Shown here piece after piece: positions 18,423 through 34,494 of a DNA stretch of 55,005 nt (position 1 is its first letter; each line of letters opens with the position of its first letter). Origin of the DNA: a virus (Duplodnaviria > Caudoviricetes); the IMG/VR virus record IMGVR_UViG_3300048113_000456, positions 1-55,005 of that record; one strand, 5' to 3'. Position numbers and translations under genes: made by a program. Under the pieces are notes generated by a model that worked only from the letters and a program-made list of their open reading frames with translations, had not been told where the DNA came from and made no database searches.

Positions 18423-19673
18423 TTAGAAAGTACCGCCGTCTAGTTCGGTAATTTGTGCTTCGAAGTTAGCAACTGTAAGTAGGTTAGAATAGTTAGTTCC
18501 ATCTACGGTAGTTTGCCAAATGTCTGTAGTTTCGTTCCAACGTAAAGAAACGTTTGCAGAAGTTCCACGTTCTACTTCAATACCTGCGTGAGCGCTTGGA
18601 GTACCAGCTTCATCTTTGTTTAAAACAATGATGTTATCGCCAATCTCTACAGTAGTAGAGTTAACAGAAGTTGTAGTACCTTGTACAGTTAAGTCGCCTG
18701 CAATAATTACATCAACACCTGATCCATCACCTAATGTAAGGTCAGCACCATTATCTGTAGTAATTGTGGTACCATCTAAGCTAAGGTTATCTACGCCTAA
18801 TGAGGTTAGTCCAGTTAAGTCAGACTCACTTGATCCTAAAGTTAAAGTAGTTGAACCTAAAGTTGTACTAGAGTTTGCTAGATTGGCGTTAGGTAACGCA
18901 CCAGAAACATCTGCTGCTAAGTCAATAGCACCCAAAGTGATTTCTTGACCACTTAAAGATAAATAGTCATGAGAAGTAGTATTAAGAGTTACATTAGTAG
19001 AGTTATCAGTACCTGCTACATCTACATTTATTAGAGTACGTACTTCACCAGCTGTAATACCTGTTTCTAAAGCAGGTGTTCCTGCATTATCATAAATAGC
19101 AGGAGTTTCGCCAGAGTAGGCAAATGTTATTGTATTATCTGTAACAGTAGTAGTAATGTCTGTACTACCAGTAAATGTTAGTGTTTCGCCCGTATTATAA
19201 GTATCGGTATTGGTACCATCACTAAGTGTAATGCTACTAGATGATGGAGCTTGCCATGCAGTTTGTCCAGAACCATTGGTAACAAGAACATTTCCTGCAT
19301 TACCGTCTGCTTGTGGCCAATTTACACCATCTAATACTAAGTCACCAGTACCATGTGGAGTTAATGTTAAAGCACCATTTGTGTCGGTACTTGTAATAGC
19401 ATTACCATCAATAGTAATATTATCAACGTTTAACTGATCAATTTTCTTGCTAGAATCTACAATAATAGCACTTGAAGCTGTTAAAGTACCTGCTGTGTGA
19501 TCAAGCATATCGGTAAAGTATTTACCACCGATTACTGTAACATCGCCTGTACCAGGATTACCAATAAATAGTTTATTACTGGTACCTTCTGATGAATAAG
19601 CTAATTCACCTTGGTTTAGTGTTGCGGGAGTAGCCGTAGTGCTACTGCGTTTTATCTTAATTACTTGAGCCAT
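18423..19673 (-). CDS. tail fibre / virion structural protein
   Basis: IKIKRS...GELAY N-terminus; G/T/S-rich beta repeats; GIEVERG...WNE motif; ends in LDGGTF. Confidence 0.7.
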   Translation of the reverse strand: MAQVIKIKRSSTTATPATLNQGELAYSSEGTSNKLFIGNPGTGDVTVIGGKYFTDMLDHTAGTLTASSAIIVDSSKKIDQLNVDNITIDGNAITSTDTNGALTLTPHGTGDLVLDGVNWPQADGNAGNVLVTNGSGQTAWQAPSSSSITLSDGTNTDTYNTGETLTFTGSTDITTTVTDNTITFAYSGETPAIYDNAGTPALETGITAGEVRTLINVDVAGTDNSTNVTLNTTSHDYLSLSGQEITLGAIDLAADVSGALPNANLANSSTTLGSTTLTLGSSESDLTGLTSLGVDNLSLDGTTITTDNGADLTLGDGSGVDVIIAGDLTVQGTTTSVNSTTVEIGDNIIVLNKDEAGTPSAHAGIEVERGTSANVSLRWNETTDIWQTTVDGTNYSNLLTVANFEAQITELDGGTF

Positions 19674-19697: not shown

Positions 19698-20048
19698 TTA
19701 AAAGGCTCCTCCGTCCTGAACACCATCCTCTTCGGCAGTGACTAAAGGAAACCAATCAGTAGTTCCTTCAACAGTTCGGTAAACATAAAAAATGTCATTT
19801 GTTGTATCGTACCAAGTATCACCAATTTCTACATTGGAGCCAGAAGGCTGCGCAGGGGTACGAAAATCCTGAGCTGCGATTTGTTCGAGAGCCCCTTGTA
19901 AATTTGTTGCACTAATGTATCCAGTAGGATTTACAACAACAGAAGTTGCCCCTACATCTGCAAGAGCTAAATTAGCTTGTACTTCAGTAGTAGTACTAGA
20001 GACAGTAACTTCTGTAATATACGGTGCAATTTGTATGCTAATAGCCAT
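19698..20048 (-). CDS. small fibre adaptor-like structural protein
   Basis: ATNLQGALEQI, GDTWYDT motifs; ends in DGGAF. Confidence 0.6.
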   Translation of the reverse strand: MAISIQIAPYITEVTVSSTTTEVQANLALADVGATSVVVNPTGYISATNLQGALEQIAAQDFRTPAQPSGSNVEIGDTWYDTTNDIFYVYRTVEGTTDWFPLVTAEEDGVQDGGAF

Positions 20049-20386
20049 TATTTAGTTACTTCCGCTACAACAGTTGCCTGCCCCTCCAAGAGTCTAGTTA
20101 CCATATCATCATTTTCAGTAAAAAGCTCTAGGTCATAAAAATATATTCCTGCCGTAAGTGCAGTTGTGGTAGAGTTTCCGAGTGCCATTTTTACTTGTCC
20201 ATTAGCAGCATCTGTCACAGTACAAGTAAACGTAGCAGCCGCAGACGCGTCAGTTTTCTTTTGACGCATTTGAGCACGAGCTGAGTAGCCCGTTAAGTTT
20301 TTAGCGGATCCGTCCTCAGACAGTGTTAACTGAATCGCAAAATCAGATCCCTGTTCGATCGTTAAGTTATATGTTGCTGCTGGCAT
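20048..20386 (-). CDS. BppU-like fibre/baseplate attachment protein
   Basis: YNLTIEQGSDF...NLTGYSARAQMR...YFYDLEL...RLLEG pattern typical of phage Ig-like attachment domains. Confidence 0.6.
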   Translation of the reverse strand: MPAATYNLTIEQGSDFAIQLTLSEDGSAKNLTGYSARAQMRQKKTDASAAATFTCTVTDAANGQVKMALGNSTTTALTAGIYFYDLELFTENDDMVTRLLEGQATVVAEVTK

Positions 20387-21347: not shown

Positions 21348-21896
21348 TTAATCCTCTGTATTAAAGAAAAAAGTCTGAAAAAGTCTGGCATTAGTTTTAT
21401 CTGTACCAAAACCTGGAAGTACACTTCTATGGTAGTAATTAGCATCGTATATCACTGCTCTATTATATAAATTTTTAGCTTCTGCTATAATTTCCCAATC
21501 CGATTCTAAAGTTTTATGTTTGTTAAAGTCTACTAGGGCTTCTTTTGAGTGTTTATATATGCCCGTAGGTTTATGTCTGTAAATAGCAGTGCCAGAGTCC
21601 AGAGGAGCATCTGGTGTTAGGTAAACTACACATGCCCAGCTTGTCTGATCGTGATGTATCCAGGTAGTTGCATCTTGTGTAGTATATTGAAACGCAGTGT
21701 TGTACTCTGCAGGCCAATAAGTTATTTTTTTGTTAAGTATTTTTTCAAAAGTTTTTTGAATTTCGTAAAACCATGCACCTCCACAAGCTTTAGTGCGTTT
21801 TCCAGGGTAGTTCCCTGTTATATTAAACTCCCAGGATAGTGCTAGTTTTCTAACACTATCCGGATCTTGATAAAAATTATCTTGTATTATAAACAT
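21348..21896 (-). CDS. 2OG-Fe(II) oxygenase (DUF6445-like)
   Basis: DNFY, YPGKR, WIHHD (HxD), VVYLTP, GT, YNRAVIY...YHRS, RLFQTFF. Confidence 0.75.
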   Translation of the reverse strand: MFIIQDNFYQDPDSVRKLALSWEFNITGNYPGKRTKACGGAWFYEIQKTFEKILNKKITYWPAEYNTAFQYTTQDATTWIHHDQTSWACVVYLTPDAPLDSGTAIYRHKPTGIYKHSKEALVDFNKHKTLESDWEIIAEAKNLYNRAVIYDANYYHRSVLPGFGTDKTNARLFQTFFFNTED

Positions 21897-21901
21897 ATAT
21901 G

Positions 21902-24900
21902 TTATCCTAGGTTGCCGATTTTTACTCTGATATTACCAGATCCATCGTATATTAAAATTCTATTGTTAGTTCCGTCTATCCCTAGCACGTTTTCGTTCGT
22001 ACCTCCCGGCGTATAATTAGACGCTCTAGAATACTCTGTAAAAGTTGTGCCAGATCCAGAATATTCCCAAGCTCTATCTGAAGGTATATGCCAGTATACG
22101 TCTCCTGCTAAAGCAGGGCTTTTTACATTTTCTATTGCTACTTTTTTATTAGCGTCTGTAGCTATAGTAGAACCTGTATCAAATGCTATAGTGTTTCCTG
22201 CCGCGCCTTGTGCTCCAATCTCCCCTTGAGGACCTGTTTCACCTTGAGCACCTTGCTGTCCTTGAGGGCCTTGAGCACCTTGGGGCCCTGTTTGACCTTG
22301 GGCTCCTTGTTGTCCTTGTGGACCTTGATCACCTTCAGCACCTTGAGGCCCTGTTTCACCTTGTGGACCATCATCACCCTGAGCACCTTGGTCACCTTGA
22401 GCACCTTGAGGTCCTGTTTCACCTTGAGGACCATCATCCCCTTGAGGACCTTGATCACCTTCTGCACCTTGAGGTCCTGTTTCACCTTGAGGACCATCAT
22501 CCCCTTGAGGACCTTGATCACCTTCTGCACCTTGAGGACCAGTAATACCTTGAGCACCTTGTTCGCCTTGAGGACCTTGATCACCTTCTGCACCTTGAGG
22601 ACCAGTAATACCTTGAGCACCTTGTTCGCCTTGAGGACCTTGGTCACCTTCTGCACCTTGAGGACCAGTAATACCTTGAGCACCTTGTTCGCCTTGAGGA
22701 CCTTGGTCACCCTCAGCACCTTGAGGACCAGTAATACCTTGAGCACCTTGTTCGCCTTGAGGACCTTGGTCACCTTCAGCACCTTGAGGGCCAGTAATAC
22801 CTTGAGCACCTTGTTCGCCTTGAGGACCTTGGTCACCCTCAGCACCTTGAGGACCTGTTTCGCCTTGAGGACCATCATCACCTTGTGGACCTTGATCACC
22901 CTCAGCGCCTTGAGGTCCTGTAATACCCTGTGCACCTTGCTCACCTTGAGCACCTTGGTCACCTGTAGCACCTTGAGGGCCTGTAATACCTTGTGGACCT
23001 TGCTCACCTTGTGGTCCTTGCTCACCTTGGTTACCTTGCAAGCCTTGAGGACCTTGAGCTCCTTGCTCTCCTATAGGACCTTGAGCGCCTACTACTAGGA
23101 AAGCAGAATATGCATGAAAACTAGAAGCATCTATAGCAGAGGAGGAGGCTTCCTGAGCGTAAGTTTGGTAATTTATATTAGTAACACCTCCCGGCACTCC
23201 GGTAGCTATTCCGTATATAGAGTAAGTTCCACCTACAGTTGAAAAACTTGCATTTACTGTTTGTTTTCCTACGGGTGTTAGTTTATTATAGTTTATTATT
23301 TCATACCATAAAGTATCTACTAAGACATCTTCTACTAACTCTTGGGTCCCAGGCTCTTTATTAGATACGGAATCATCTCCTCCCCATACCCAGTGTTTCC
23401 CTGAGTGTAAAACAAGATCTCCATTATCATAGCTAGTAGAAGAAGACCAGGCACTTTGATTAGCAGGGGCACCTCCATAATCTTCATCAGAAGGATCTAA
23501 ATAACCTCTAGGAGCATTTGAGTAGTAAGGAAAGACTGTTTCTCCAGTATCTCCTACAGCTCCCTGCAGTCCTGCACCTCCTTGTGGGCCAGTAATACCT
23601 TGAGGACCTGTCTCACCTTGAGCACCTTGAGGGCCTTCACCACCTTGTGGACCAGTAATACCTTGAGGACCTTGGTCACCTGTAGCACCTTGAGGACCTG
23701 TCTCACCTTGAGCACCATCAGCACCTTGAGGACCTTGGTCACCTGTAGCACCTTGAGGACCTGTCTCACCTTGAGCACCATCAGCACCTTGTGGACCTTG
23801 ATCACCTGTTGCACCTTGAGGACCTGTCTCACCTTGAGGACCATCATCACCTTGAGGACCTTGATCACCTATATTACCTTGAGGACCTGTTTCACCTTGA
23901 GGGCCGTCTTCACCTTGAGGACCTTGATCACCCTCAGCACCTTGAGGACCTGTTTCACCTTGAGGACCGTCTTCACCTTGAGGACCTTGATCACCCTCAG
24001 CACCTTGAGGACCTGTCTCACCTTGAGGACCGTCTTCACCTTGAGGGCCTTGATCGCCGATGTTACCTTGAGGACCTGTCTCACCTTGAGGACCGTCTTC
24101 ACCTTGAGGGCCTTGATCACCGATGTTACCTTGAGGACCTGTTTCACCTTGAGGACCGTCTTCACCTTGTGGACCTTGATCGCCTATGTTACCCTGTGGA
24201 CCTTCTTCACCTTGAGGACCGTCTTCACCTTGAGGACCTTGGTCACCTATATTGCCTTGAGGGCCTTGTTCTCCTTGTGGACCTTCTTGACCTTGAGGCC
24301 CTTGATCACCTATATTACCTTGAGGACCTGTTTCACCTTGAGGACCCTCTTCACCTTGTGGACCTTGTTCACCTTGAGCACCTTCTTCACCTTGAGGACC
24401 TTGATCACCTTCAATGCCTTGAGGGCCTTGAGCACCACGAATAGACTTAGTAAAGGTTTGAACTCTAGTGTAGGTTGTTTCACCTCCTACGCCATCTACA
24501 ACAACTATCGTAAAGGTAATACTTCCGGTATTTGCACTAAGAGCTGTAATACTACCTAGTGTGTAAGAATTTGAGTCTGTAGTAGGAGTGCTATCTTCTG
24601 TAACATTAGTAGAAGATACATTAGTAACTCTAAACGACGGAGTTTGGTATTCTTCACTATCATCATAAGGTATATAAGTATTTCCTATAATTGCTTTGAT
24701 AGTAGTACTTGTATTGGTAAAATCTAATGTGTCGTTTTCAAGAACTGGTACACTACAGTTTTCATTACTAAGTACTATATTTACGCCGTCTACTACTCCG
24801 TCAGCTACGCCCTCTACGCCTGGGTATCCGCTTAAAGGATGATACGCAGAGTATAGTCTAGAAACTTTATTTCCGTTTTGAGTATCAATCTGCGTAACTA

Positions 24901-27900
24901 CATGTCTTATCCAGTAGTATCTAGTCTCTGTTTCTGTAGAAAGTATTTTATCCAGGAATATATTGCCAGAGGTAGTACCTATTTTTTCCGCATTAGCAAA
25001 ACTATCGTCTGTGGATCTCCAGATTTCTGTATCAAAAGCAGCTTCATTAAAGTCTGAAGAATTAGTCCAAGTAAGTTCTATACCACCTTTTCTTGAGTTT
25101 AAATTTTGTGCTAAATCTGAAGGAGAAAGTACACGTACAATTGGACTTGCTTGTGGAGCTTGATACATTGGAGCTACAGCTGAATTTAAACGCTCTAATA
25201 TATAAGCATCATCATTATGCTCTACGGCTACAACCTGTACAAGATTATTAGAGTCTGCTTTCAGTGTTTGTATTCTAAATAATTTCTTTTCCCAGTTAAA
25301 TCTAGGATAAGTTATGGCAATTATTTCTCCAGAAAGAAGTAAGTAAGACTTAGGAGACAACGTTAACGATATAGATAAACCCGCTCTTGATTCGTCAAGA
25401 AGTTGTTTAATATTTAGACGAGCATTATAGTAGTTAGAGATACCACCTGCTTTAAAGTTTCCTTGACGTTTAATACCTTTATCTTCTTCCAAATAAACTG
25501 AATTAAAGAAAGATAAACTTCTAGTATTGAATGAGTTAGAAGGGTCTACTATAGATGCTGTAATAGCATTATACGTTTTATTTATACCCTTATCTTCTAA
25601 CTTTATATCACCTATAATATCATCTTCTGTGATAATTTCAATAGCAGGATCAAAGTTTTCAATAGCTTTAGCTTTTGTTTTTACTTTTAAATAGTATTTT
25701 CCTTGCTGGTATCGTAAAATACCATTAAATTGGCTCAGTAAATTATTTACGTTTTCAAAAACAGATGTAGAGGTATCAATAACAATATTTGTCTGGTGTC
25801 TAGTAACGTATCTTTGGTCTTGGCTGTCCCAACCTAAGTACTTCCAGTAGAGAACAGAATCAGAGTCGTACAAAGAGTATCCAGTAACAACAGCAGTTTC
25901 ATTGTTGTCTAGAGTAGTGATTTGTTTAACGATAGGATTTTGATCTCCACCGTTCATAACATCTGTACTAGTGTTTACTGTTATATCGTTAGAAGTTCCA
26001 GTTAATGTCAGAGTTCCAAAAGCACCTGTAGGCTTAACAATAGTTCCTTTAGAGGTTACAATTGAAGCGGTTAAAGTGCTGTCTTCATAATGGTAAACTA
26101 AGTCGTTTACTTCATACTCTTTCCAGTCAAACCATTTTTTACCTAATTTTCCTATAACGTCTGTAAATACTACTTGTTTGTATGTAGTACCTTTGTATGT
26201 TTTTAACTCTACAGACTCTACAGTACCTTTAAACATTAACTGGCCTGTAGCAGGGTATCTATATTCTTGACCTACTTGTACAGTAGAATATTGACCACAT
26301 AAAATTGTTACGTCAGAACGCTGTTCACAAGCTAATGCTGACTCGTAAAAACTAGGTAAATCAATTAAATCTAAAGACAAGCCTTTACCGTATCGCTCAC
26401 TAGTTAAGTAATCTAACAATTGTAGCGCAGGGTTTATTGTAACCCTATAGTCTCCGAAGTTATTTGTAGAAACTATAGAAGTAGAGTGCCCATAGCTATA
26501 TGAGTAACCAGTAAGATCTAAAGTACCTTCTACTATTAAAATGTTATTAGTGTCAATAAAAGTCTGAAAGCTTGAGTCCTCCGGAGAAAGTACGGACTTA
26601 GTATATGTAGTGCTGCCCTCTTTTGTGAATTTTACATTTAAACTACTTATTACAGATAGTGCAGATGTGTCTGAGCTGTCTCTTGTATAGGCGCTTACAT
26701 TTTTAAACTCTAAATCTACAGAATCTATTGTTACACTTTGAGTATCAGAGTATAAGTCTACAAGCTCTCCTGAATTTTGTAAAGTATAAGTAGGATTTGA
26801 AAAGAATTGATCAAGATTTGAGTTTTTCTGCACTACTCTTGCTTTGAAGGTAGTAGTATTTATAGAGTAAAGAGTTACTCTAAATGTTGCATCCGTTGTG
26901 CCCTCTGTAAGAGAAAGTTGCAGAGAAAAAGCCTGGTCATTAGTATTTTTTAAGGCTTTTATTAAGTTTTTGTCAAAAGTAGATAAACCTGATAAGTCAA
27001 TATCATAGTATGCTGATACTAAATCGCTAGGAGTTCTTTTTAATTCTGGGTCGTAAGAAAATACTTGCTTAGTAGATACTCTTGTTAGACTAACATCAGT
27101 TAAGTCTGAGGGATTAAGTCTAGAGCCTACGTCATACTCATCGCTTGTAGCTGCGGTTGTACCAGAGAAAGACTCTGATACCATGACCCAAGAATCGCTT
27201 CCAGAGGTCATAGTTATGCTTTTAGCCTCCCCAGCGTCTATTATATCTTGTACAGATTGAGTAGCACATTTTACTTTAAAACGTACGTCTAAACTGCCGT
27301 CAGCACTGTACAAAGTAAACTTATCTACAATTTCGGCTGAAGAAGTTTGTCCAGTATTTAAAGTTATGGTTACTGTTTGTCCTAAGTAAAAGTTATCTGC
27401 TTCTGCTGGATCAGTAGTACCTCTATAAGTACCATCATAGTTTTGACAATTTACATATTTGCCTTTTACTACATAAGAATACTCTCCTGCTTTTCCACTT
27501 TCTGAGGTAACAGTATCTTTTGTTACAACGTATGCAGTGTCAAGTAACTGGTGGTTAGCTGTCCAATATTCGCTAGGGTCTTTATCGTAGTAGTCATTTT
27601 GTACTAAAAATTTACCTTGAGAGGCGTTTTTAACTAAGGTAGGGTCAGCTCTTTGGTTATCGAGCCCTGCGTGGAAAGTAAAATGTAAATCATTATTTGA
27701 TTTCCAAGAAAATGTTTTACCGTGTGTAATACCCGTATTACTTACAAGTCTATGTTGAAACGCATCACTTAATTCATAAGATGCCTGATACAGTCTATTT
27801 GTAGTTGGAGTCTGTATTCTTTCATAGTTTTCGTCGCCTAGTAAGAAAGCTTCAGTTTGTATGGCAGAAGATTGATCTAAGGTATAAAAGTCTGCTCCGC

Positions 27901-29242
27901 CTAGTACATCGCCTTTGTCCATTCTTCCAATACAGGCTACTCCTGCTTCAGCGTCACTTCCTACATAGCGACTGTCATAGTCTGCTTTATTAGAGCATAT
28001 TAAACCTTTGTTATTATCAGTGTATACGTCATAGACTCCACCAATAGGACCTTCACACAATACATTAGCTGTATATAGCTCTGTTTTACCTTCTGCAATA
28101 TTATCAGATGAGTTACTATCACGGGTAATAATTACATCGGCAAATACAGGTACAGCATCTATTTTTTGAACACCATAAACTACAGGTATGAATTTAGCTT
28201 GTAAATTAAAGCTAACGTCAAGCTCTCGCTCTACTTCATAAGTTTCTATGGAGGTTTTTTGCATCCCAAAAAGACCTGCCAAACCACCACGTTTACGTAT
28301 TTTTGGTCGTGTAGCTGTATCTGTGTATTGTGCGCTTACATTTAAAGCCGAGTCTGCGTGCTCAAAACCTTTGTCATCTTTATACGCTGGAGAAATTAAG
28401 GCTCCTTCTGAGGAAAACCCTGACGCGTCTAGTGCTCTGTGGTACTCATCTGAAGTTAAACGTCCTTGAACGCCTACAAAGTCTGCCCAGTGGCTAGTAA
28501 GATTCCATGTGATTGCTGCCTCTCCAGATGCCTTATCTGAAATAGAAGACTTACTAATAATTCCCTTAAAGAAAAAGATAGGGTCTGTATGATACCACTC
28601 TCCTGTAGTAGGATTTGAATAGATTTTATAAATGTCAACAGAACGGTTTACATAGTTCGAGTAGCTAAGAGATGCAGTGTTAGGTATAAGTCCAGAGACT
28701 TCAGGGTTAGCATATTCTATATCAAAAGCAGTACTTAAAACTGTAGGAAAGCCTGCGTCATCTAGTGCCGTATACTCTACTTCAGTTCCAGAACTTTTTA
28801 ATTTATCAATTCGTACATTGTGTACATTAGAAGTAGATCTAGAAGATAGAACTATAGTGTCGCCTGGATAAAACCCAGACTTAAAAAGGTCAATAGAAGT
28901 GGTAAAAGTACCTGTAGATCCTTTTGCTGTTGAAGTATTGTTTGTTATGGTAGATACTGCGTAGGCACCTAACTTAGCAGCAGAAAGAACCAAGTTTGAG
29001 TTACTTGCTTTTGCTTGAGTAGCTTCTTCAATTGCACCTACTTTTAAAAGTGACCCAGGTCTATACGTCTGTCCATCCCATTCTACATCATGAGGTGCGT
29101 CAGTTAAGTAAACAAAATCTAAGGCAGAATCTGACTCTTTTTTGTTCGAAGGTTTTTCAAATTTTACTAGGTGAAAAGTATTAAAAGGATTGTTAGCTAT
29201 AAGCGCATCTTTTAAACTTTGCGGAAGATTTCTGATTGCCAT
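21902..29242 (-). CDS. central tail tip/hub protein (T5 pb3 / lambda J-like) fused to two collagen blocks and a CBM-like module
   Basis: [30 protein letters not shown] motifs; FnIII-like region; 200 Gly-X-Y triplets; C-terminal RVKIGNL; follows the distal tail protein. Confidence 0.85.
22190..23089 (-). repeat. collagen block 2: 100 uninterrupted Gly-X-Y triplets, 63-bp unit
   Basis: GAQ...GNT spans exactly 900 nt; unit [21 protein letters not shown]. Confidence 0.9.
23537..24436 (-). repeat. collagen block 1: 100 uninterrupted Gly-X-Y triplets, 63-bp unit
   Basis: GAQ...GET spans exactly 900 nt; unit [21 protein letters not shown]. Confidence 0.9.
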
Positions 29243-29342: not shown

Positions 29343-29984
29343 TTATACTAAACACTCTTTCAGCTTGAGAGATAAGCTATATAAGCCATTAGTATCAATA
29401 GAATAAGATATAGTATCAGAATCTGCAAGTACTTGCATTTTTGGATAAGCAAAAACCGCATCCGCTGAAGTATTTCCTAATACTTTTTTCTGCAAAGAGG
29501 GAGAGATAGTAATACTTGTAGATGTAGGTATGGTAGTTACCTGATACGCCTTTACATGGGTATCATCACCCGGATCTGCAATATAAAACATATCACCAAC
29601 CTCTACTCCAGTAGTATTTGCAATAGTTAAAGTAGACGACCCCGCTTCAGCGGTAGCTGTTACCTCTTTATCTAATACAGATGGTTTATAGTGTTGCGGT
29701 AAACCTACTAAGAAAGGCTCTAGGCTTGCTTGGTGTTTTAGTAAAAATCCATATACTGTATTAAACTGGGCTTTAGTAAGTGGATTATACTTTATACTTA
29801 CGTTCCACTCATGAAACATATTTATCTGTCTAAAAGAAATACCAGACCTAGATCTATTAGTGACTACTGGTTGTACAGATTCTACAGTCATACTGGCAAA
29901 GCCAGGACCGTAAGATCCTAGCGCTGCTTCCCCTTCTTCATCTATAGGACTTAGTGGGTCTGGTAGTGTATTTTGAATTGCCAT
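29343..29984 (-). CDS. distal tail protein (T5 pb9-like)
   Basis: LPDP...GPGFAS...SRSG...W.V.I.YNPLT; lies between tape measure and tail hub genes. Confidence 0.8.
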   Translation of the reverse strand: MAIQNTLPDPLSPIDEEGEAALGSYGPGFASMTVESVQPVVTNRSRSGISFRQINMFHEWNVSIKYNPLTKAQFNTVYGFLLKHQASLEPFLVGLPQHYKPSVLDKEVTATAEAGSSTLTIANTTGVEVGDMFYIADPGDDTHVKAYQVTTIPTSTSITISPSLQKKVLGNTSADAVFAYPKMQVLADSDTISYSIDTNGLYSLSLKLKECLV

Positions 29985-29985
29985 G

Positions 29986-32900
29986 TTATGCCTCTAAAGT
30001 ATTGACACTTTCTAAGAAAGTCTCTCCGTTTGAATTTGCTGCTTCTCGTAGCATTCCAATAATATTTCCGCGCTGATTTAGAAGAACTTCTTCCACGCCT
30101 TGTGCGTCTACCGCTGATATGTTTATGTTTGCATTTACAGTTGGCTGTAAGCCTGCCGCTGTTTCGTCTGCTGGTACTATAGTACCTGGACGATCTGGAA
30201 CAAACATTTCTGGTCCTTGCTCTCCAACTACAAATGCTGTGTTACCACCTGCGGCTCTATATTTTGCACCAGTAAATGCAGGAGTAAAGTTATTAGCTCC
30301 ACCAATACCTTGATTTCCTCTCATATAACCTAATTCACCGGCTGCAGATCTAGAGCTTGCCATATCTATAGAAGAACCTCTTTTACCTGCAGACACTGAA
30401 GTAGGTGCAGAAGTATCAGCAGAAGCTGATCCTCCATTATATGTCATTCCAGATATTAAGGATACTTGAGCCATACCCATAGCACCTACGAGTCCTGCTA
30501 GTATCATATTATAAGGTGCTGGTGCTGAAGATAGAGCTTGAGTTATACCTGTTGCTGTACCGATAATAGCTTGAGCCATTTTCATTTTTTTGTCTTGCTC
30601 AAAAGCTTTACGCTTCATTGCTTCTTTTTTAGCTTCTAGAGATTTTAACTTAGCTACGCTTTCTGCTGATTTTCCATCTAAGGCTTTTTCTCTTTCTATC
30701 TGCTTATCAATTCCAGCGATTGCACTTCTAGAAGCTGCACTCATTGCAGATGCTAATGCACTTACGGAAGCGCCTACTACCTGGAGTGCGGCACCTACTA
30801 CCTCGGCTTGCTCTGCTAAATTCATGCTACTAAATGCTTCAGACATTGAGGTAAAGTTACTCTTAGTTCTTTCATTAAAAGATTTAAGGACAGAAGTAGA
30901 AACTTCTCCAAAGTGCATAACACTGTCAGTGATCTTAAACATGCCTTCTTGCAATCCAGCAATCAGCTCTCCTTCAGGACCTAGCTTACGTAACTCTTCT
31001 CCTAAAGGCTGTAGCATATTACCCATAGCAGCAATTTTATCTCTAGTACTAGCTTCGTCTATACTAAATAAACCTCCGTCTCCAGTAGCTGCCTGTAGTC
31101 TTTCGTAAAAAGACCCTGTTGCAGTTTTTCCAAACTCAATAGCTTTTGCAGCGGCATCCGCCAAAACATCTGCATTTACGGATTTTTGGTGCTCTGCTTG
31201 ATCATCAATATCTTTTAAGGCGTCTTTTCTGTTTGATCCAGAACCTACTTGTGCTGATGTTATATTAGATTGAGAGGCTGTTAACTTAGTCGCTAAATCA
31301 ACATCACCTGCCTCATTAGCTTTTTTAATTTGCATATCTAACTGAGCCGAAAGTAAAGCATACTGCGCGTCTATTAAGTCATACTCTATTTTAACTTTAG
31401 TTTTTAAAACCTCTAGCTGTGCGTCTCTATTTTTCGCTTCTAACTCTTGAGTCTTTTTAACTATTAAGTACTCTTCTTTTGGGCCTAGGTCTCTAGAAGT
31501 AGATCCAGGTTCAGATGCTTTTTTCAATTTTAACTGTATTCTGTAAGCTTCTACACCTCTAGCCGTAGCTTTTTCTGCTAACTGCAATTGCTTTTCTTTC
31601 ATAGCTAGACTGGCTTTTTCAATTTGCTGTATAAACTGAACTATAGCTAACTCACCTTTTGTTACCTCTACCAAGTTTTCTGCTTTATCAATTGCTTGCT
31701 CATCGAGTGTGTTAAGTTTATTTTTATTTGCTCTTATTTTATTAGTGAGATTTATGTACTCGGCGCTCTGTTTATTTATATCTGTAACGCCGTTTTTATG
31801 CTCGTCCATAGACTCTAAAATCTTTTGATCTGCATCTATTGTAGCTTGTACACCAGCTTTCTGTGCTTTTATAACATCGTTAGTTAACTTTAATACGTTT
31901 TTAAGTGTTCTTGTAGATAAGCCACCCTTAGCTTTTTCAGTTGCTAATTGTTCTTTAGCTACTGCTAAAACACCTTTGTTTGTTTCTAAAGTTTTTGCAG
32001 AAGCAGTAAGTACTGTAGTAACGCCATCTATGTTTTTGTCTATAACATCTTTAGCTTCTTTCTCTATTGCTAGGTTTTTCTTTTTGAGAGCAGCGGCTTT
32101 ATCTAGTAGTTCTTGTGCTTTCGCTCGCTGTGCATTCTCTTCATCAATAGTAGAACTAAAACTAAATAAGCGGAAACCTTGATTTTGTAAAGGAGCTAAA
32201 ATTGCGTTAGCTTCTTTTTCTAGATCTTGAGCAGCTTTTTTATTTAATTCTACTTCAATTTGTTTCTCTGATACTCCAAGTATTGCCGCTTGCATAGCAG
32301 ACAAGCTTTCAAGCACTATCGTTGCACTTTCTCCAAGTTTAGCAGACATTGCTTTTGAAGCCTCGCCTACTTGCTTAAGCCCAGAAGCCATTTCACTAAT
32401 AGGGCTTTTAGGCTTTAACGAATTCATGTATTCATCTACAGATTTTCTAGATGCCTTAGCGGCTTCTTTAAAAACTGTTACAGTATTGGCAGCTTCTTTT
32501 TGTCCTTTTATAAATTCATTGAGTAAAGAAACTGCTTCTGTTTGATTTTTTGCATTATCAACGAGCTCTTTAGCATTGGCTTTATATGCTTGTGTAAGTA
32601 CTGAACTAGACCCTATTAAGTCACGAATAGCTTTTTCTTGTGCATCCAAAACATCCCCATTGTTAGCGCCAGCTACATTAAGTGTATCATAAGACCCTTG
32701 AAATTGAGCCAAAATATTATCTAAGGCTGTATAGCTCGCTCCCAGAGTAAATATCTTAGTACTAGTCCCCGCAAAAGCTTTATCTACTTCTTTTAGGTTA
32801 TCAGCCAATTCTTTATGAACTTCGCTTAAAGCTTCTATGTTCTTTTCTAACTCTTTTGTACCAGCACCTTTAAAGCCTTCGTATAAAGCTTTTGACGCTT

Positions 32901-34494
32901 GCCATACTAGAGTTATTACGAATATAATCTGACCTATAATAGGTATAGCGTTTAGCAATGCACTACCGAATAGTGTTGCCGCACCTGCTGCTGCTCTTAA
33001 ACCTACGGCTATTTTAGAGCCTATGCCTGCTTGCTTTCCTATTTGTCTGAATTGAGCTGATGAATACCCAGCAGCAATTTTAACTTTATCCCAAGCTCCT
33101 GCAAGGTCGTCTGTAGTTTCTGCCATTTTTTGTAAGCCTCCGGCAGTTAGCTTAGACGTTCTAGAAGAACCTATAGCTTTTCTTTCAGTACTAGACTTAC
33201 TTCCTCTTCCAGATTCTTTTTCTTGTAAAGATTGAGCTGTTGCAAGTAATTGTTGTGTTACTGCAAGCTCTTTTTTCTTTTCATTTGTAAGCTCTTTTGC
33301 TCCGTTAAGCCTAAATTGTTCAGATTTTTTTAGCTCTCGTATAGTAGTTTTTAAAAACTTAGCTTTATCATCTGCGTTCTTATACTCTGTAGCAAATTTA
33401 GCTACAGTTTTAGGTGCTATACCGCCACTTTTTAATTTAGCATTAGCATTGTTTATTTTTTGAAAGCCAGCTATTGTTTCTTGCTCTGCTTTTTTATAAC
33501 TAGCACTTACTTTTCTGGAAGCATCTTTTGCTGATTTAGCATAAGCTTCGGCAGATTTTTTAGCGGCTTGTGCAGTCATCTCAATTCCAGGTACTATTTT
33601 AGATACTATTGAGGAGGCAAATACTGCCATTACGCCTATTAGAGCTGTAGGAGAAGAAGCTAAAAAAGACACTAATGGTTTGAGTACAGTATTTACAAGA
33701 CTTAAGGCATTTTTACTTAAATCAGCAAAAGTTGCTGCTAGTCTATTATAAGGATTAGAGTCTACCTCATTGCCTATAGCTCCAAATTTAGCCTGAGCTT
33801 CATCTAATACAGCATTTGCAAACGCTTGTCGTTTTTCAAAGTTTGTAAGCTGGGCTGTAGTTTTGCCTACACTTCGAGCATAGTCTGCTGATGCAGTATC
33901 TAGTCTTACAAAAATACCTAATTCATCGAGTAATTCTGGCTCAAGTTTTGTTATACCGCGTGTAAGTCGTTGTATAGAGTCTTGCATATCTCTACCAAGA
34001 GCGGTAGACGCGTTTCTAGCTGCGACTGTTAGCTCTTGTACTTTAGAGGGATCTAAGCCTGCACTTGTTATAGATATAACTGAACGCATAGCCTCTTCCA
34101 TACTTAAAGCAGCTCCACTAGCTTCTATCATACCCTTAGATAGGCTAGTCATAGCAAGACCTGAAGTTCTACCTAATTCACGTAAACCTTGAGTTAACTG
34201 GTCTACTTGAGCAGCTCTCTGTAAAACGCCAAAAGCCGCGGTAACGGCAAAGACGTTCGCGGCTAAGGTTGCGTAGGCAGGAACTAATCCACTATCAATA
34301 CCTGTGGTCATTTTTGAAAATGCTTTGGTACTATTAGAGGTTGCGCCTGCTACGCCTTTTTGTTGTTTCTGGTAATTATCACCTGATTTTGCTAAGTCAT
34401 CGTTTGCTTTTTTGGCTTTTTGGGTGTCTTTTTCAAGCTGACCCATGCCTTTGGAGTCTACATTAACCTTTACGTTGACGTCATTACTAGCCAT
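29986..34494 (-). CDS. tape measure protein (T5 pb2-like)
   Basis: 1502 aa, helical and Ala/Lys-rich; YATLAANVFA, KLEPELLDELGI, VGEQGPE motifs; follows the chaperone genes. Confidence 0.9.
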   Translation of the reverse strand: MASNDVNVKVNVDSKGMGQLEKDTQKAKKANDDLAKSGDNYQKQQKGVAGATSNSTKAFSKMTTGIDSGLVPAYATLAANVFAVTAAFGVLQRAAQVDQLTQGLRELGRTSGLAMTSLSKGMIEASGAALSMEEAMRSVISITSAGLDPSKVQELTVAARNASTALGRDMQDSIQRLTRGITKLEPELLDELGIFVRLDTASADYARSVGKTTAQLTNFEKRQAFANAVLDEAQAKFGAIGNEVDSNPYNRLAATFADLSKNALSLVNTVLKPLVSFLASSPTALIGVMAVFASSIVSKIVPGIEMTAQAAKKSAEAYAKSAKDASRKVSASYKKAEQETIAGFQKINNANAKLKSGGIAPKTVAKFATEYKNADDKAKFLKTTIRELKKSEQFRLNGAKELTNEKKKELAVTQQLLATAQSLQEKESGRGSKSSTERKAIGSSRTSKLTAGGLQKMAETTDDLAGAWDKVKIAAGYSSAQFRQIGKQAGIGSKIAVGLRAAAGAATLFGSALLNAIPIIGQIIFVITLVWQASKALYEGFKGAGTKELEKNIEALSEVHKELADNLKEVDKAFAGTSTKIFTLGASYTALDNILAQFQGSYDTLNVAGANNGDVLDAQEKAIRDLIGSSSVLTQAYKANAKELVDNAKNQTEAVSLLNEFIKGQKEAANTVTVFKEAAKASRKSVDEYMNSLKPKSPISEMASGLKQVGEASKAMSAKLGESATIVLESLSAMQAAILGVSEKQIEVELNKKAAQDLEKEANAILAPLQNQGFRLFSFSSTIDEENAQRAKAQELLDKAAALKKKNLAIEKEAKDVIDKNIDGVTTVLTASAKTLETNKGVLAVAKEQLATEKAKGGLSTRTLKNVLKLTNDVIKAQKAGVQATIDADQKILESMDEHKNGVTDINKQSAEYINLTNKIRANKNKLNTLDEQAIDKAENLVEVTKGELAIVQFIQQIEKASLAMKEKQLQLAEKATARGVEAYRIQLKLKKASEPGSTSRDLGPKEEYLIVKKTQELEAKNRDAQLEVLKTKVKIEYDLIDAQYALLSAQLDMQIKKANEAGDVDLATKLTASQSNITSAQVGSGSNRKDALKDIDDQAEHQKSVNADVLADAAAKAIEFGKTATGSFYERLQAATGDGGLFSIDEASTRDKIAAMGNMLQPLGEELRKLGPEGELIAGLQEGMFKITDSVMHFGEVSTSVLKSFNERTKSNFTSMSEAFSSMNLAEQAEVVGAALQVVGASVSALASAMSAASRSAIAGIDKQIEREKALDGKSAESVAKLKSLEAKKEAMKRKAFEQDKKMKMAQAIIGTATGITQALSSAPAPYNMILAGLVGAMGMAQVSLISGMTYNGGSASADTSAPTSVSAGKRGSSIDMASSRSAAGELGYMRGNQGIGGANNFTPAFTGAKYRAAGGNTAFVVGEQGPEMFVPDRPGTIVPADETAAGLQPTVNANINISAVDAQGVEEVLLNQRGNIIGMLREAANSNGETFLESVNTLEA

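Follow-up and report, generated by a model that had tools for sequence, protein, structure and literature searches.

In phage lambda, the central tail fibre is formed by a C-terminal extension of gpJ, and in T5 the central fibre and receptor binding are provided by separate proteins, pb4 and pb5. The Tal protein of S. thermophilus phages, in the excerpted text of Lavelle et al. 2020 (PMC7533335), runs from a hub through 100-500 aa of collagen, one or more CBMs and a collagen linker of ~100 aa to a C-terminal domain of ~80-100 aa described as having an unknown fold. In the Tal proteins of cos and pac siphophages of this species, it is the domains between the collagen-like repeats that vary and are linked to host range, according to the antireceptor VR2 work as cited in passages of PMC5601072. 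Collagen-like fibres are also encoded by E. coli prophages (EPclA-D), where the excerpted account of Ghosh et al. 2012 (PMC3368898) presents PfC as a trimerisation module and the fibre as an extended dumbbell in electron microscopy (EM).

The window analysed here, a stretch of 55,005 nucleotides from a Caudoviricetes record (IMGVR_UViG_3300048113_000456), encodes a protein, P0001, in which a tail-tip hub continues into a collagen block, a spacer, a second collagen block and a small C-terminal domain. A preliminary description of this locus had considered the fusion of collagen to a hub unusual in itself. This view did not hold, since the hub-collagen-CBM-collagen-small-domain topology is already known from S. 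thermophilus Tal (PMC7533335, excerpted text) and the present analysis added more than 20 marine lineages. The explanation that we favour as a whole, and regard as probable, is that of a marine siphovirus hub bearing an extended or kinked central fibre with an exchangeable mid-fibre knob.

The hub protein and its collagen blocks

By its sequence and gene position, P0001 is a central tail fibre protein, because its gene directly follows those of the tape measure protein (TMP) and the distal tail protein (Dit), in the order TMP-Dit-hub with all three on the minus strand, and because its N-terminal part is a J/pb3-like hub (Table 1). A PHROG profile search matched residues 1148-1422 to phrog_31 ('central tail fiber J', E 1.8e-31), and tblastn with the hub matched 914 phage records, the best at ~31% identity over 43% of the query. 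The best tblastn matches were from Vibrio phages of 80-128 kb, annotated as 'tail protein' or 'central tail fiber J'. At E-values up to 1, Pfam scans with complete P0001, with its spacer and with its C-terminal domain listed only Collagen, Phage_phiJL001_Gp84_N, CBM_5_12 and DUF6705; Phage-tail_3 (PF13550), precomputed for the relatives P0002 and P0009, did not match P0001 at E up to 1, and megablast of the P0001 gene against phages returned no match. The phage is present in seawater runs from at least four studies (Logan contigs), and its host is presumably a marine Gram-negative bacterium. Two MAG fragments matched in a genome collection gave no clue to the host, and an ESM Atlas search yielded no usable lead.

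Table 1. Features of the P0001 locus, in window coordinates
Feature	Positions	Strand	Size and sequence	Basis or remark
Tape measure protein (TMP)	29986-34494	minus	1502 aa	phrog_3779, E 2.6e-80
Distal tail protein (Dit)	29343-29984	minus	213 aa	phrog_1302, E 4.1e-18
Hub / central-tail-fibre protein P0001	21902-29242	minus	2446 aa; stop codon 21902-21904	ORF list and translation
J/pb3-like tail-tip hub	24437-29242	minus	N-terminal 1602 aa	phrog_31 and tblastn matches
Pre-collagen domain, probably Ig-like	24437-24787	minus	aa 1486-1602, ends ...QTFTKSIR	conserved directly before collagen
Collagen block 1	23537-24436	minus	aa 1603-1902; 100 G-X-Y triplets, 900 nt	53 D+E, no K/R; 63-nt period
Spacer, type A knob	23090-23536	minus	149 aa	homologous to type B knobs (hhalign probability 97%, E 1.7e-11)
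CBM5/12-like module in spacer	23294-23452	minus	aa 1931-1983	sub-threshold Pfam CBM_5_12 and PDB profile matches
Collagen block 2	22190-23089	minus	aa 2052-2351; 100 G-X-Y triplets, 900 nt	43 D+E, no K/R; 63-nt period
C-terminal domain	21905-22189	minus	95 aa, IAF...GDVYWHIP...RVKIGNLG	conserved in relatives

P0001 is thus divided into segments of 1602, 300, 149, 300 and 95 aa (hub, collagen, spacer, collagen and C-terminal domain). The Pfam Collagen family (PF01391) scores 294.2 bits for the whole protein against a gathering threshold of 27.2, with 10 stretches matched. Both Gly-X-Y blocks are uninterrupted and equal in triplets and nucleotides, exactly as reported in the preliminary description, whose coordinates and counts were reproduced. 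They consist of tandem arrays with a period of seven triplets, in 12.8 and 12.1 copies with 87-88% matches. The dominant seven-triplet units differ between the blocks, as had been described; yet rows 4 and 10-12 of block 2 are units of the block-1 type (85-93% nucleotide identity), which qualifies this distinction. Rows 5-9 of block 2 are mutually 95-100% identical over 315 nt.

The seven-triplet period is common to unrelated collagen arrays. Duplication of a whole arm was considered as the source of the equal arms and rejected: DNA identity between blocks 1 and 2 is 75.4% in register, which does not exceed that found with shifts of 63-252 nt. In-register identity between the arms is likewise no better than that of shifted registers in L006, L010, L049 and L003. 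Sequence exchange between arms as an equaliser was not supported either, as the 15-21-mers common to both arms also occur in L004 and L012, whose arms are unequal.

Fusion to a hub whose relatives we take to be trimers, together with the published phage collagens, suggests that P0001 would trimerise and form triple helices. Each block would then correspond to a predicted triple-helical rod of ~86 nm, close to the ~85 nm given in the preliminary description.

Knob, cap and pre-collagen domain

The spacer was initially described as carrying a motif resembling CBM5/12, and profile comparisons gave weak, sub-threshold signals for such a motif. The Pfam CBM_5_12 family (PF02839) matches it partially, over profile positions 1-22 of 44, at 20.7 bits (E 4.4e-4) and thus below the gathering score of 26.2. 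Among nine knobs, four gave such matches, all below this score (17.4-24.4 bits: window 20.7, L010 24.4, L008 17.6, L004 17.4), and the other five had none at E up to 0.1 (P0002 by count only). A profile of nine spacers matched 25 PDB sequences, weakly (E 0.006-0.6) and always on the CBM-like part (profile positions 21-69); 24 of these bear the names of chitinases, chitin deacetylases or NodB-domain proteins, and the top match, 7b5h, is listed as an unnamed protein. Within type A knobs, W30, Y36, G39, D40 and W51 are invariant, and in the spacer alignments the module of this phage alone has a 9-aa insertion. A library search with the spacer returned three weak matches, two of them CBM5/12-like repeat proteins and one spurious, arising through this window-specific insertion; a word-index search with the spacer alignment among longer proteins returned no match.

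The knob is exchanged between close relatives. In L006, L010 and L049, the hubs are 86-96% and the C-terminal domains 70-82% identical, while between the arms L006 has a type A knob, L010 one of type B and L049 just one additional residue. We therefore treat the knob as the exchangeable part of the fibre. Its CBM-like sequence suggests glycan binding, and the knob would likely be an adhesin for initial, reversible attachment to the host surface or to a polysaccharide.

The C-terminal domain, or cap, matches no Pfam family and gave a single weak PHROG match (E 0.0098). A profile search of the PDB found no solved relative for it, just sub-significant NHL-like strand motifs. Judged by these searches, knob and cap are two undescribed domain families, the knob being without a Pfam match above threshold and without a PHROG match. 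Neither was found in any cultured phage by tblastn with the spacer and the C-terminal domain against 50,697 GenBank phage records. A relationship between the cap and the C-terminal end of a Thr-rich 2084-aa protein was rejected, the similarity being confined to a 16-aa motif (hhalign probability 11%). The cap family also terminates stand-alone collagen fibres: the L013 group runs from N124 through 169+7+194 triplets to a related C-terminal domain. In L014, just 19 triplets precede the same domain.

At the other end of the collagen, the pre-collagen domain is kept directly N-terminal to the repeats in six aligned sequences and 39 viral loci. Its PDB matches are weak and Ig-like, including the T5 decoration protein 5lxk (E 0.4). 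Judged by eye from the end motif, the pre-collagen domain is paired with other C-termini in 16 of 29 complete ORFs.

Arm lengths and the shape of the fibre

Arm lengths were tabulated for 23 complete double-block lineages including the window, with no phylogenetic correction; this table replaces an earlier permutation test on eight lineages. The difference between blocks ranges from -17 to +35 triplets, or up to 30 nm, and exceeds 5 triplets in 15 of the 23 lineages and is exactly 0 in two. The two lengths scale together (r = 0.95), with a regression of b2 = 23.3 + 0.62 b1 whose slope (CI 0.52-0.71) is not 1; the window lies 15 triplets above this line (residual SD 7.5). Exact equality occurs in one of the 22 other lineages, where a normal fit to their differences predicts about 0.026 per lineage. 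Across the wider family, the 100/100 equality is not more than chance.

The proteins of the window's own sub-clade share the hub family and the pre-collagen domain and end in a C-terminal domain of 90-95 aa; their arm lengths are 100/100, 69/69, 79/80, 76+77 (L049, one extra residue between), 67/72 and 66+7+78 (P0008). Arms within 1 triplet are found in four of these six against none of 18 others (Fisher p = 0.0014, for a grouping picked post hoc and with no phylogenetic correction), despite unrelated collagen sequences and three kinds of mid element. The equality could in principle be an assembly artefact, with the copy number of near-identical 63-nt units mis-estimated in a metagenomic contig. 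The near-identity of block 2 rows 5-9 fits this explanation, and the contigs of relatives often stop inside collagen (L008, L011, L037, L044). Logan contigs from four independent seawater runs of four studies all break inside both arrays, leaving ~22430-22826 and ~23690-24212 unbridged, and the 100/100 copy numbers therefore rest on one assembly. However, the longest exact repeats in the arrays are just 77 and 69 nt, so that reads of 100-150 nt with long k-mers could in principle resolve them, the reading frame is unbroken through both arrays, and equal or near-equal arms recur in the independent assemblies of relatives. We accordingly consider an artefact highly improbable.

The preliminary description had read the equal arms as an out-and-back fibre. 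In this geometry, the first rod would reach ~86 nm outwards to a knob at the far apex, and the second would come back and bring the C-terminal domain to the tail tip. Such a hairpin would need equal arms, and homologues with freely unequal blocks had been named as evidence against it. Besides the exact equality in the window, the near-equality of four of six sub-clade proteins, reached from independent collagen cassettes, speaks for this geometry, as does the inequality seen in three other members of this hub family, of which L009 (+30) is without the pre-collagen domain and L046 (-17) and L053 (+15) have another C-terminal domain. Counting triplets in homologues, the comparison proposed at the outset, bore out near-equality for the closest relatives (69/69, 79/80, 76+77, 67/72) but not for the wider family, in which the blocks are freely unequal, e.g. 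132/102, 121/86 and 126/103. The first of these, L009, has a C-terminal domain 64% identical to that of the window, and the other two, L012 and L080, have one of the same family. Indeed L012 (+35), L073 (+16) and L080 (+23) are unequal despite having both a pre-collagen domain of the window's family and an RVxIG C-terminal domain, and P0008 departs from equality within the sub-clade itself. Pairs of 128/102 and 23/40 have other C-terminal regions, L004 keeping only the first ~55 aa. Post hoc, block 1 of L009 can be divided into ~30 charged and ~102 other triplets, which we did not count as evidence.

The closest full-length relative, P0007, also speaks against a return to the tip. Its hub (55% identity along the full 1602 aa), pre-collagen domain and C-terminal domain (74%) are those of the window protein, and it has one unbroken rod of 117 triplets; the C-terminal domain can therefore sit at the far end of a fibre. 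Further points against a hairpin are the single extra residue of L049, which would be too little for three chains to turn back, the presence of the cap family at the ends of stand-alone fibres, and the pairing of the pre-collagen domain with other C-termini in more than half of the complete ORFs. Both rods are also strongly acidic, with 53 and 43 D+E per chain and no K/R, which would disfavour side-by-side packing, although this argument is weak at the ionic strength of seawater. The unequal homologues, the single rod of P0007 and the stand-alone fibres thus leave the proposed return of the C-terminal domain unsupported. The fibre is probably not folded back, and we regard the hairpin as very unlikely.

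A weaker constraint would have selection hold a hinge, or a centre of folding and registration, near the middle of the rod with no return to the tip, so that arms become nearly equal in some clades. The fibre may jack-knife at a knee, or globular trimers flanking each half may start the zippering of the highly repetitive triple helix and keep its chains in register. Consistent with this proposal, the break in the collagen falls between 0.37 and 0.58 of its length in all 23 lineages, across totals of 61 to 234 triplets and with the correlation given above, and this holds for three knob types as well as for single-residue or short interruptions (L049 76+77, L058 55+7+62, L013 169+7+194). Some collagen-domain pairs of E. 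coli prophages are close in length (106/102 and 118/117 residues) and others are far apart (117/75 and 48/135), in the excerpted data of PMC3368898. On the other hand, modules are shuffled between lineages, which makes the independence of these phylogenetically uncorrected observations uncertain, and a slope of 0.62 means that the second arm is longer in short fibres and the first arm in long ones. P0007 has no discontinuity at all, and the collagen parts of S. thermophilus Tal are very unequal (100-500 aa against ~100 aa in the excerpted text of PMC7533335). Such a constraint seems rather unlikely to us.

In a further reading, this hub lineage would actively hold its arms equal within ~1 triplet whatever the mid element, and the fibre would be a two-armed device folding at its exact midpoint. 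A stowed jack-knife or hairpin would place the cap beside the pre-collagen domain and open on host contact; the stowed state would have disappeared in relatives whose arms are unequal or whose rod is single. We judge this reading to be quite unlikely.

In the favoured explanation, P0001 is the tail-tip hub of an uncultured marine siphovirus, and its last 844 residues would build the central tail fibre. Three hub chains, each with a small Ig-like domain ahead of the collagen, would wind into a triple helix of 100 triplets (~86 nm) and then form a trimeric knob displaying three CBM5/12-like modules, beyond which a second triple helix of 100 triplets would follow. The 95-aa conserved cap may hold the three chains together and in register at the fibre end, which would be the free distal end, and the whole would be either stretched out or bent at the knob, without doubling back towards the tail tip. 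Rod length would shift through gain or loss of 63-nt units, making the 100/100 match one point on a loose family-wide co-scaling and no design rule. The good conservation of the C-terminal domain, which is unusual for a receptor-binding tip, counts against this explanation, as do the near-equal arms of the sub-clade, for which whole-arm duplication gives no account, the position of the window above the family regression and the sub-threshold CBM_5_12 scores.

Relation to described fibres and modules

If the favoured explanation is correct, this fibre, whose triple helix would total ~172 nm, would rank with the longest of the collagen-like phage fibres described from sequence, and the design of hub, collagen, sugar-binding module, collagen and cap known from dairy streptococcal phages would also occur, built from unrelated domains, in the J/pb3-type tails of abundant marine viruses. 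A knob swapped between near-identical phages, with recombination-prone collagen repeats on both sides, is a candidate host-range cassette. The co-scaling of arms around a near-midpoint discontinuity and the shared seven-triplet period bear on the assembly, registration and use of highly repetitive triple helices.

The P0001 hub core is homologous to lambda gpJ and T5 pb3, its gene likewise comes after those of TMP and Dit, and as in gpJ a C-terminal extension would form the central fibre, although the proteins of T5-like Vibrio phages align over just 38-44% of the hub part. The motif W...Y..GD.V.Y....W of the CBM5/12 modules of chitinases and chitin deacetylases is present in the knob, with the weak profile scores given above; a difference is that the module is part of a bigger domain, 133-149 aa among the knobs, which would have to be trimeric.

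EPclA-D are trimeric collagen-like fibres with non-collagen modules, as predicted for P0001, and in the excerpted text of PMC3368898 some have two collagen domains split by a small module and a C-terminal PfC. Their lengths vary in multiples of three residues and they appear extended and hinged in rotary-shadowing EM (PMC3368898, excerpted text). In phi24B gp61, as far as the available account goes, the collagen shaft is interrupted mid-way and ends in a small globular domain. EPclA-D and gp61 are separate side-fibre proteins, whereas the collagen of P0001 is fused to the hub; the EPclA-D rods are much shorter, at ~30 nm, and their modules are PfN, PCoil, Pf2 and PfC, whereas the P0001 matches at E up to 1 include no phage-fibre Pfam families.

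The closest parallel in domain order is S. thermophilus Tal, where the excerpted description gives the same succession as in P0001 of a trimeric tail-tip domain, collagen, CBM, collagen and a C-terminal domain of ~100 aa. The parts themselves differ: the Tal N-terminus is gp27-like and that of P0001 J/pb3-like (phrog_31), the Tal module is BppA-like whereas the sole family signal of the P0001 knob is CBM5/12, and both collagen parts of P0001 are 300 aa long, in contrast to the unequal ones described for Tal. The variable inter-collagen domains described for Tal parallel the knob exchange seen among L006, L010 and L049.

The collagen extension of the tail-tip hub

The 2446-aa hub protein (P0001) lies in an IMG/VR virus record of 55,005 nt with 71% estimated completeness. 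Two upstream genes on its strand encode the tape measure (phrog_3779, E 2.6e-80) and distal tail (phrog_1302, E 4.1e-18) proteins. For residues 1-1602, the PHROG match is "central tail fiber J" (phrog_31, E 1.8e-31), and tblastn aligns them with 914 phage records, the best of which (~31% identity across 38-44% of the query) come from Vibrio phages of 80-128 kb and carry the annotation "central tail fiber J" or "tail protein". The upstream genes and these matches identify the collagen part as an extension at the C-terminus of the tail-tip hub, i.e., a central tail fibre. Three smaller ORFs are encoded downstream, and side-fibre genes may be next in order. P0003, a downstream protein made up nearly entirely of short Thr-rich repeats (TAFNTTT, TSRGT, and similar) with a Tyr-rich non-repeat island at its centre, is presumably the "Thr hairpin"; a relationship between its C-end and the C-terminal domain of the collagen protein was rejected, as the two have only a 16-aa motif (YTGSGNVFTE) in common (hhalign probability 11%).

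Coordinates of the collagen fibre gene, its parts, and neighbouring ORFs
Feature	Position (nt)	Strand	Description
Hub/collagen ORF	21902-29242	minus	2446 aa; contains all fibre parts listed
Collagen block 1	24436-23537	minus	aa 1603-1902; 100 uninterrupted triplets, 900 nt (script)
Spacer		minus	149 aa between blocks 1 and 2 (script)
Insertion in spacer	23297-23323 region		9 aa; spacer aa about 64-75
Collagen block 2	23089-22190	minus	aa 2052-2351; 100 uninterrupted triplets, 900 nt (script)
C-terminal stretch		minus	95 aa after block 2 (script)
182-aa ORF	21348-21896	minus	matches phrog_1644 ("minor coat protein")
112-aa ORF	20048-20386	minus	"L-shaped tail fiber protein assembly" families, phrog_3304, E 4e-20
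416-aa ORF	18423-19673	minus	phrog_15769, function unknown
P0003	11636-17890	minus	2084 aa

A script scan of the ORF identified exactly two long Gly-X-Y runs, whose equal lengths in the window agree exactly with the preliminary description. Tandem Repeats Finder reported a 63-nt period in blocks 1 and 2 (12.8 and 12.1 copies, respectively; 87-88% matches). When laid out as seven triplets per row, GDQ opens rows 3-13 in both blocks, and this layout confirms that their dominant units differ, as had been claimed; units of the block 1 type also occur within block 2 (rows 4 and 10-12, 85-93% nucleotide identity), while rows 5-9 of block 2 are mutually 95-100% identical. Both blocks are acidic, with 53 (block 1) and 43 (block 2) Asp and Glu per chain and no Lys or Arg, and each has a predicted length of ~86-87 nm at ~0.29 nm per residue, the value in PMC3368898.

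Among 18 collagen blocks of 9 lineages, autocorrelation was strongest at a lag of 7 triplets (21 aa, 63 nt) or 14 triplets in 16, despite unrelated unit sequences; 7-triplet units are also present in P0007 and L044. The loci concerned, besides both blocks of the window, are L003, L004, L006, L009, L010, L012, L013, and L044, with proteins P0002 and P0007. Since the axial repeat of a 7/2 collagen helix is seven triplets, this period may be structurally selected. With such a period, block length changes in 7-triplet steps.

The region 21900-24700 was compared with contigs from four seawater runs (four studies). Coverage of its non-repeat parts was continuous, each piece differing at 0-4 letters, and contigs of all four runs break within both arrays (about 22430-22826 and 23690-24212), so that the exact copy numbers depend on a single assembly. 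The longest exact repeats in the arrays are 77 and 69 nt, and the arrays are thus resolvable in principle by ordinary reads. This phage, or a relative at a level of at least 99%, occurs in runs of viral metagenomes from seawater and aquatic sources, with at least 60% of sampled words present in 20 runs from 9 studies.

The mid-fibre knob

The spacer had been likened to a CBM5/12 module. It partially matches Pfam CBM_5_12 (20.7 bits, E 4.4e-4, profile positions 1-22 of 44; gathering score 26.2). Of nine related spacers, this one included, four match, with a top score of 24.4 bits and none at the gathering threshold. A profile built from nine spacers matched 25 PDB sequences, all at profile positions 19-69; 24 are annotated as chitinase, chitin deacetylase, or NodB-domain protein, and the best match (7b5h) is to an unnamed protein. 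Given these sub-threshold Pfam scores and weak PDB E-values (0.006-0.6), "CBM5/12-like" is a fair description, with family membership putative. The rest of the spacer had no significant match in Pfam or PDB, and the spacer had none in PHROGs. An acidic/hydrophobic 9-aa insertion (QELVEDVLV...) in the window's module is missing from all relatives among nine aligned knobs; it caused a spurious spacer match to an unrelated repeat protein (P0004).

Three spacer types were distinguished in relatives. Homology links types A and B (hhalign probability 97%, E 1.7e-11), and type C has no detectable relation to either. Loci L006, L049, and L010 encode hubs 86-96% identical and C-terminal domains 70-82% identical, with unrelated collagen sequences and three different mid elements, i.e., a knob of type A, one of type B, or one residue. 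The pre-collagen domain of L044 is 93% identical to the window's, and its 7-triplet collagen unit is quite different. The knob would be the variable part of the fibre. In some relatives the knob gives way to a conserved interruption by one residue, GPAGTT-P-GP(T/V)G, present once in L049 and twice, at a spacing of exactly seven triplets, in P0008, L058, and L013. On metagenome contig L004 (8546-13318), a collagen-knob-collagen cassette is found in a separate 1591-aa fibre protein. Its knob is of type A, with 71% identity to that of the window; the N-terminal part measures 101 aa and the C-terminal region 660 aa, and of the cap the protein retains no more than the first ~55 aa. Duplessis and Moineau (2001) is reportedly the original paper on variable regions in S. 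thermophilus phage antireceptors. The exchange of knobs seen here resembles these host-range-linked regions, which are flanked by collagen-like repeats (PMC5601072).

Arm lengths across relatives

Relatives were collected by scanning contigs of viral, metagenome, and genome origin for the spacer, C-terminal domain, and pre-collagen domain, and through protein homologue and protein representative searches, with blocks cut out by script. Neither spacer nor C-terminal domain was found in a cultured phage among 50,697 GenBank records. After merging duplicates (L002/L003/L007, L005/L006, L009/L031, L010/L040/L052) and leaving out genes cut at contig ends (L008, L011, L037, L044, L070, L078, L079), the final set included 23 lineages with two long collagen blocks.

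Triplets in successive collagen blocks, by mid element (last row excluded from block statistics)
Mid element	Lineages
Window	100/100
Type A knob	P0002 67/72; L006 69/69; L003 62/65; L004 128/102
Type B knob	L009 132/102; L010 79/80; L032 25/36; L033 36/43; L034 58/64; L035 34/43; L036 34/48; L038 37/54; L039 36/41; L041 37/44; L046 23/40; P0009 53/56
Type C spacer	L012 121/86; L053 60/45; L054 53/45; L073 76/60; L080 126/103
Single extra residue	L049 76/77
Two single-residue interruptions, seven triplets apart	P0008 66/7/78; L058 55/7/62; L013 169/7/194

Equality of the two blocks, for which the triplet count in homologues had been set beforehand as the test, does not extend across these lineages. 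Block 1 is at most 35 triplets longer (about +30 nm) and 17 triplets shorter (about -15 nm) than block 2, the difference being 0 in 2/23, within 1 in 4/23, within 5 in 8/23, and >5 in 15/23, and arms are unequal even with the same C-terminal domain family (L009, L012, and L080). A regression which, like these counts, takes no account of phylogeny or module shuffling (b2 = 23.3 + 0.62*b1, r = 0.945) has a slope interval of 0.52-0.71, which excludes 1. Given this range and slope, homologues are freely unequal, the outcome named in advance as refuting the hairpin. The regression line meets the diagonal near 61 triplets, which explains why near-equal pairs cluster at 62-80; for the window, block 2 exceeds the fitted value by 15 triplets (residual SD 7.5).

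The arms nonetheless scale together, with the discontinuity at 37-58% of a collagen length totalling 61 to 234 triplets. Within the window's sub-clade, defined by the same hub family, pre-collagen domain, and a 90-95-aa C-terminal domain ending RVxIG, arms are 100/100, 69/69, 79/80, 76/77, 67/72, and 66/7/78, i.e., within one triplet in 4/6 vs. 0/18 other lineages (Fisher p = 0.0014, for a post hoc grouping). A recent whole-arm duplication was rejected as the source of equality, since in-register DNA identity between arms does not exceed that of shifted registers (window, L006, L010, L049, L003); inter-arm word sharing is also found in unequal lineages. For the co-scaling and the sub-clade near-equality, two readings were retained: a very improbable fold-back of the fibre within this sub-clade, and a constraint on the midpoint with no return of the C-terminal domain to the tip, which we consider unlikely.

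The C-terminal domain and known collagen fibres

The preliminary description placed the C-terminal domain back at the tail tip, an arrangement that fits poorly with several relatives. In P0007, the closest full-length relative (hub 55% identical and colinear across all 1602 aa, same pre-collagen domain, C-terminal domain 74% identical), the collagen is a single unbroken 117-triplet block without spacer, and the C-terminal domain, judging from this sequence, must lie ~100 nm from the hub. Related domains also end stand-alone collagen fibres of ~370 triplets (L013 group) and, in another hub protein (L014), follow merely 19 triplets. Among 29 C-complete ORFs with the pre-collagen domain, 13 end in this C-terminal family and 16 otherwise (end motif, by eye), hence the two domains are no obligate pair. 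The out-and-back fold is thus not supported by the relatives' sequences; the equal-arm tendency of the closest ones speaks in its favour and leaves it a small probability. The C-terminal domain would instead fit a distal cap keeping three chains together, resembling PfC, a domain trimeric by experiment in the collagen-like fibres of E. coli prophages (PMC3368898). Neither this domain nor the pre-collagen domain had a significant match in Pfam or PDB, and the former had one weak match in PHROGs.

Collagen fused into a pb3/J-like hub had been proposed to be unusual; collagen on a tail-tip protein is already known. According to PMC7533335, the Tal proteins of S. thermophilus cos/pac phages consist of a hub, collagen (100-500 aa), one or two CBMs, a collagen linker of ~100 aa, and a C-terminal domain of ~80-100 aa with unknown fold. 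E. coli prophage fibres have two collagen domains with a small module between (PMC3368898), the collagen shaft of phi24B gp61 is "interrupted ... in the middle", and the baseplate of S. aureus phage 80alpha includes a collagen-like fibre protein (PMC7048315). Collagen at the tail tip is therefore not new. No account of such a fibre on a J/pb3-type hub was found among the papers listed by full-text literature searches. The present fibre differs in four respects: its J/pb3 hub type, its CBM5/12-like knob family, its cap family, and its long, nearly symmetric rods. Overall, the gene product is a collagen-type central tail fibre borne on the hub, with a CBM5/12-like knob at mid-fibre and a conserved cap at its end, a new variation on a known design.
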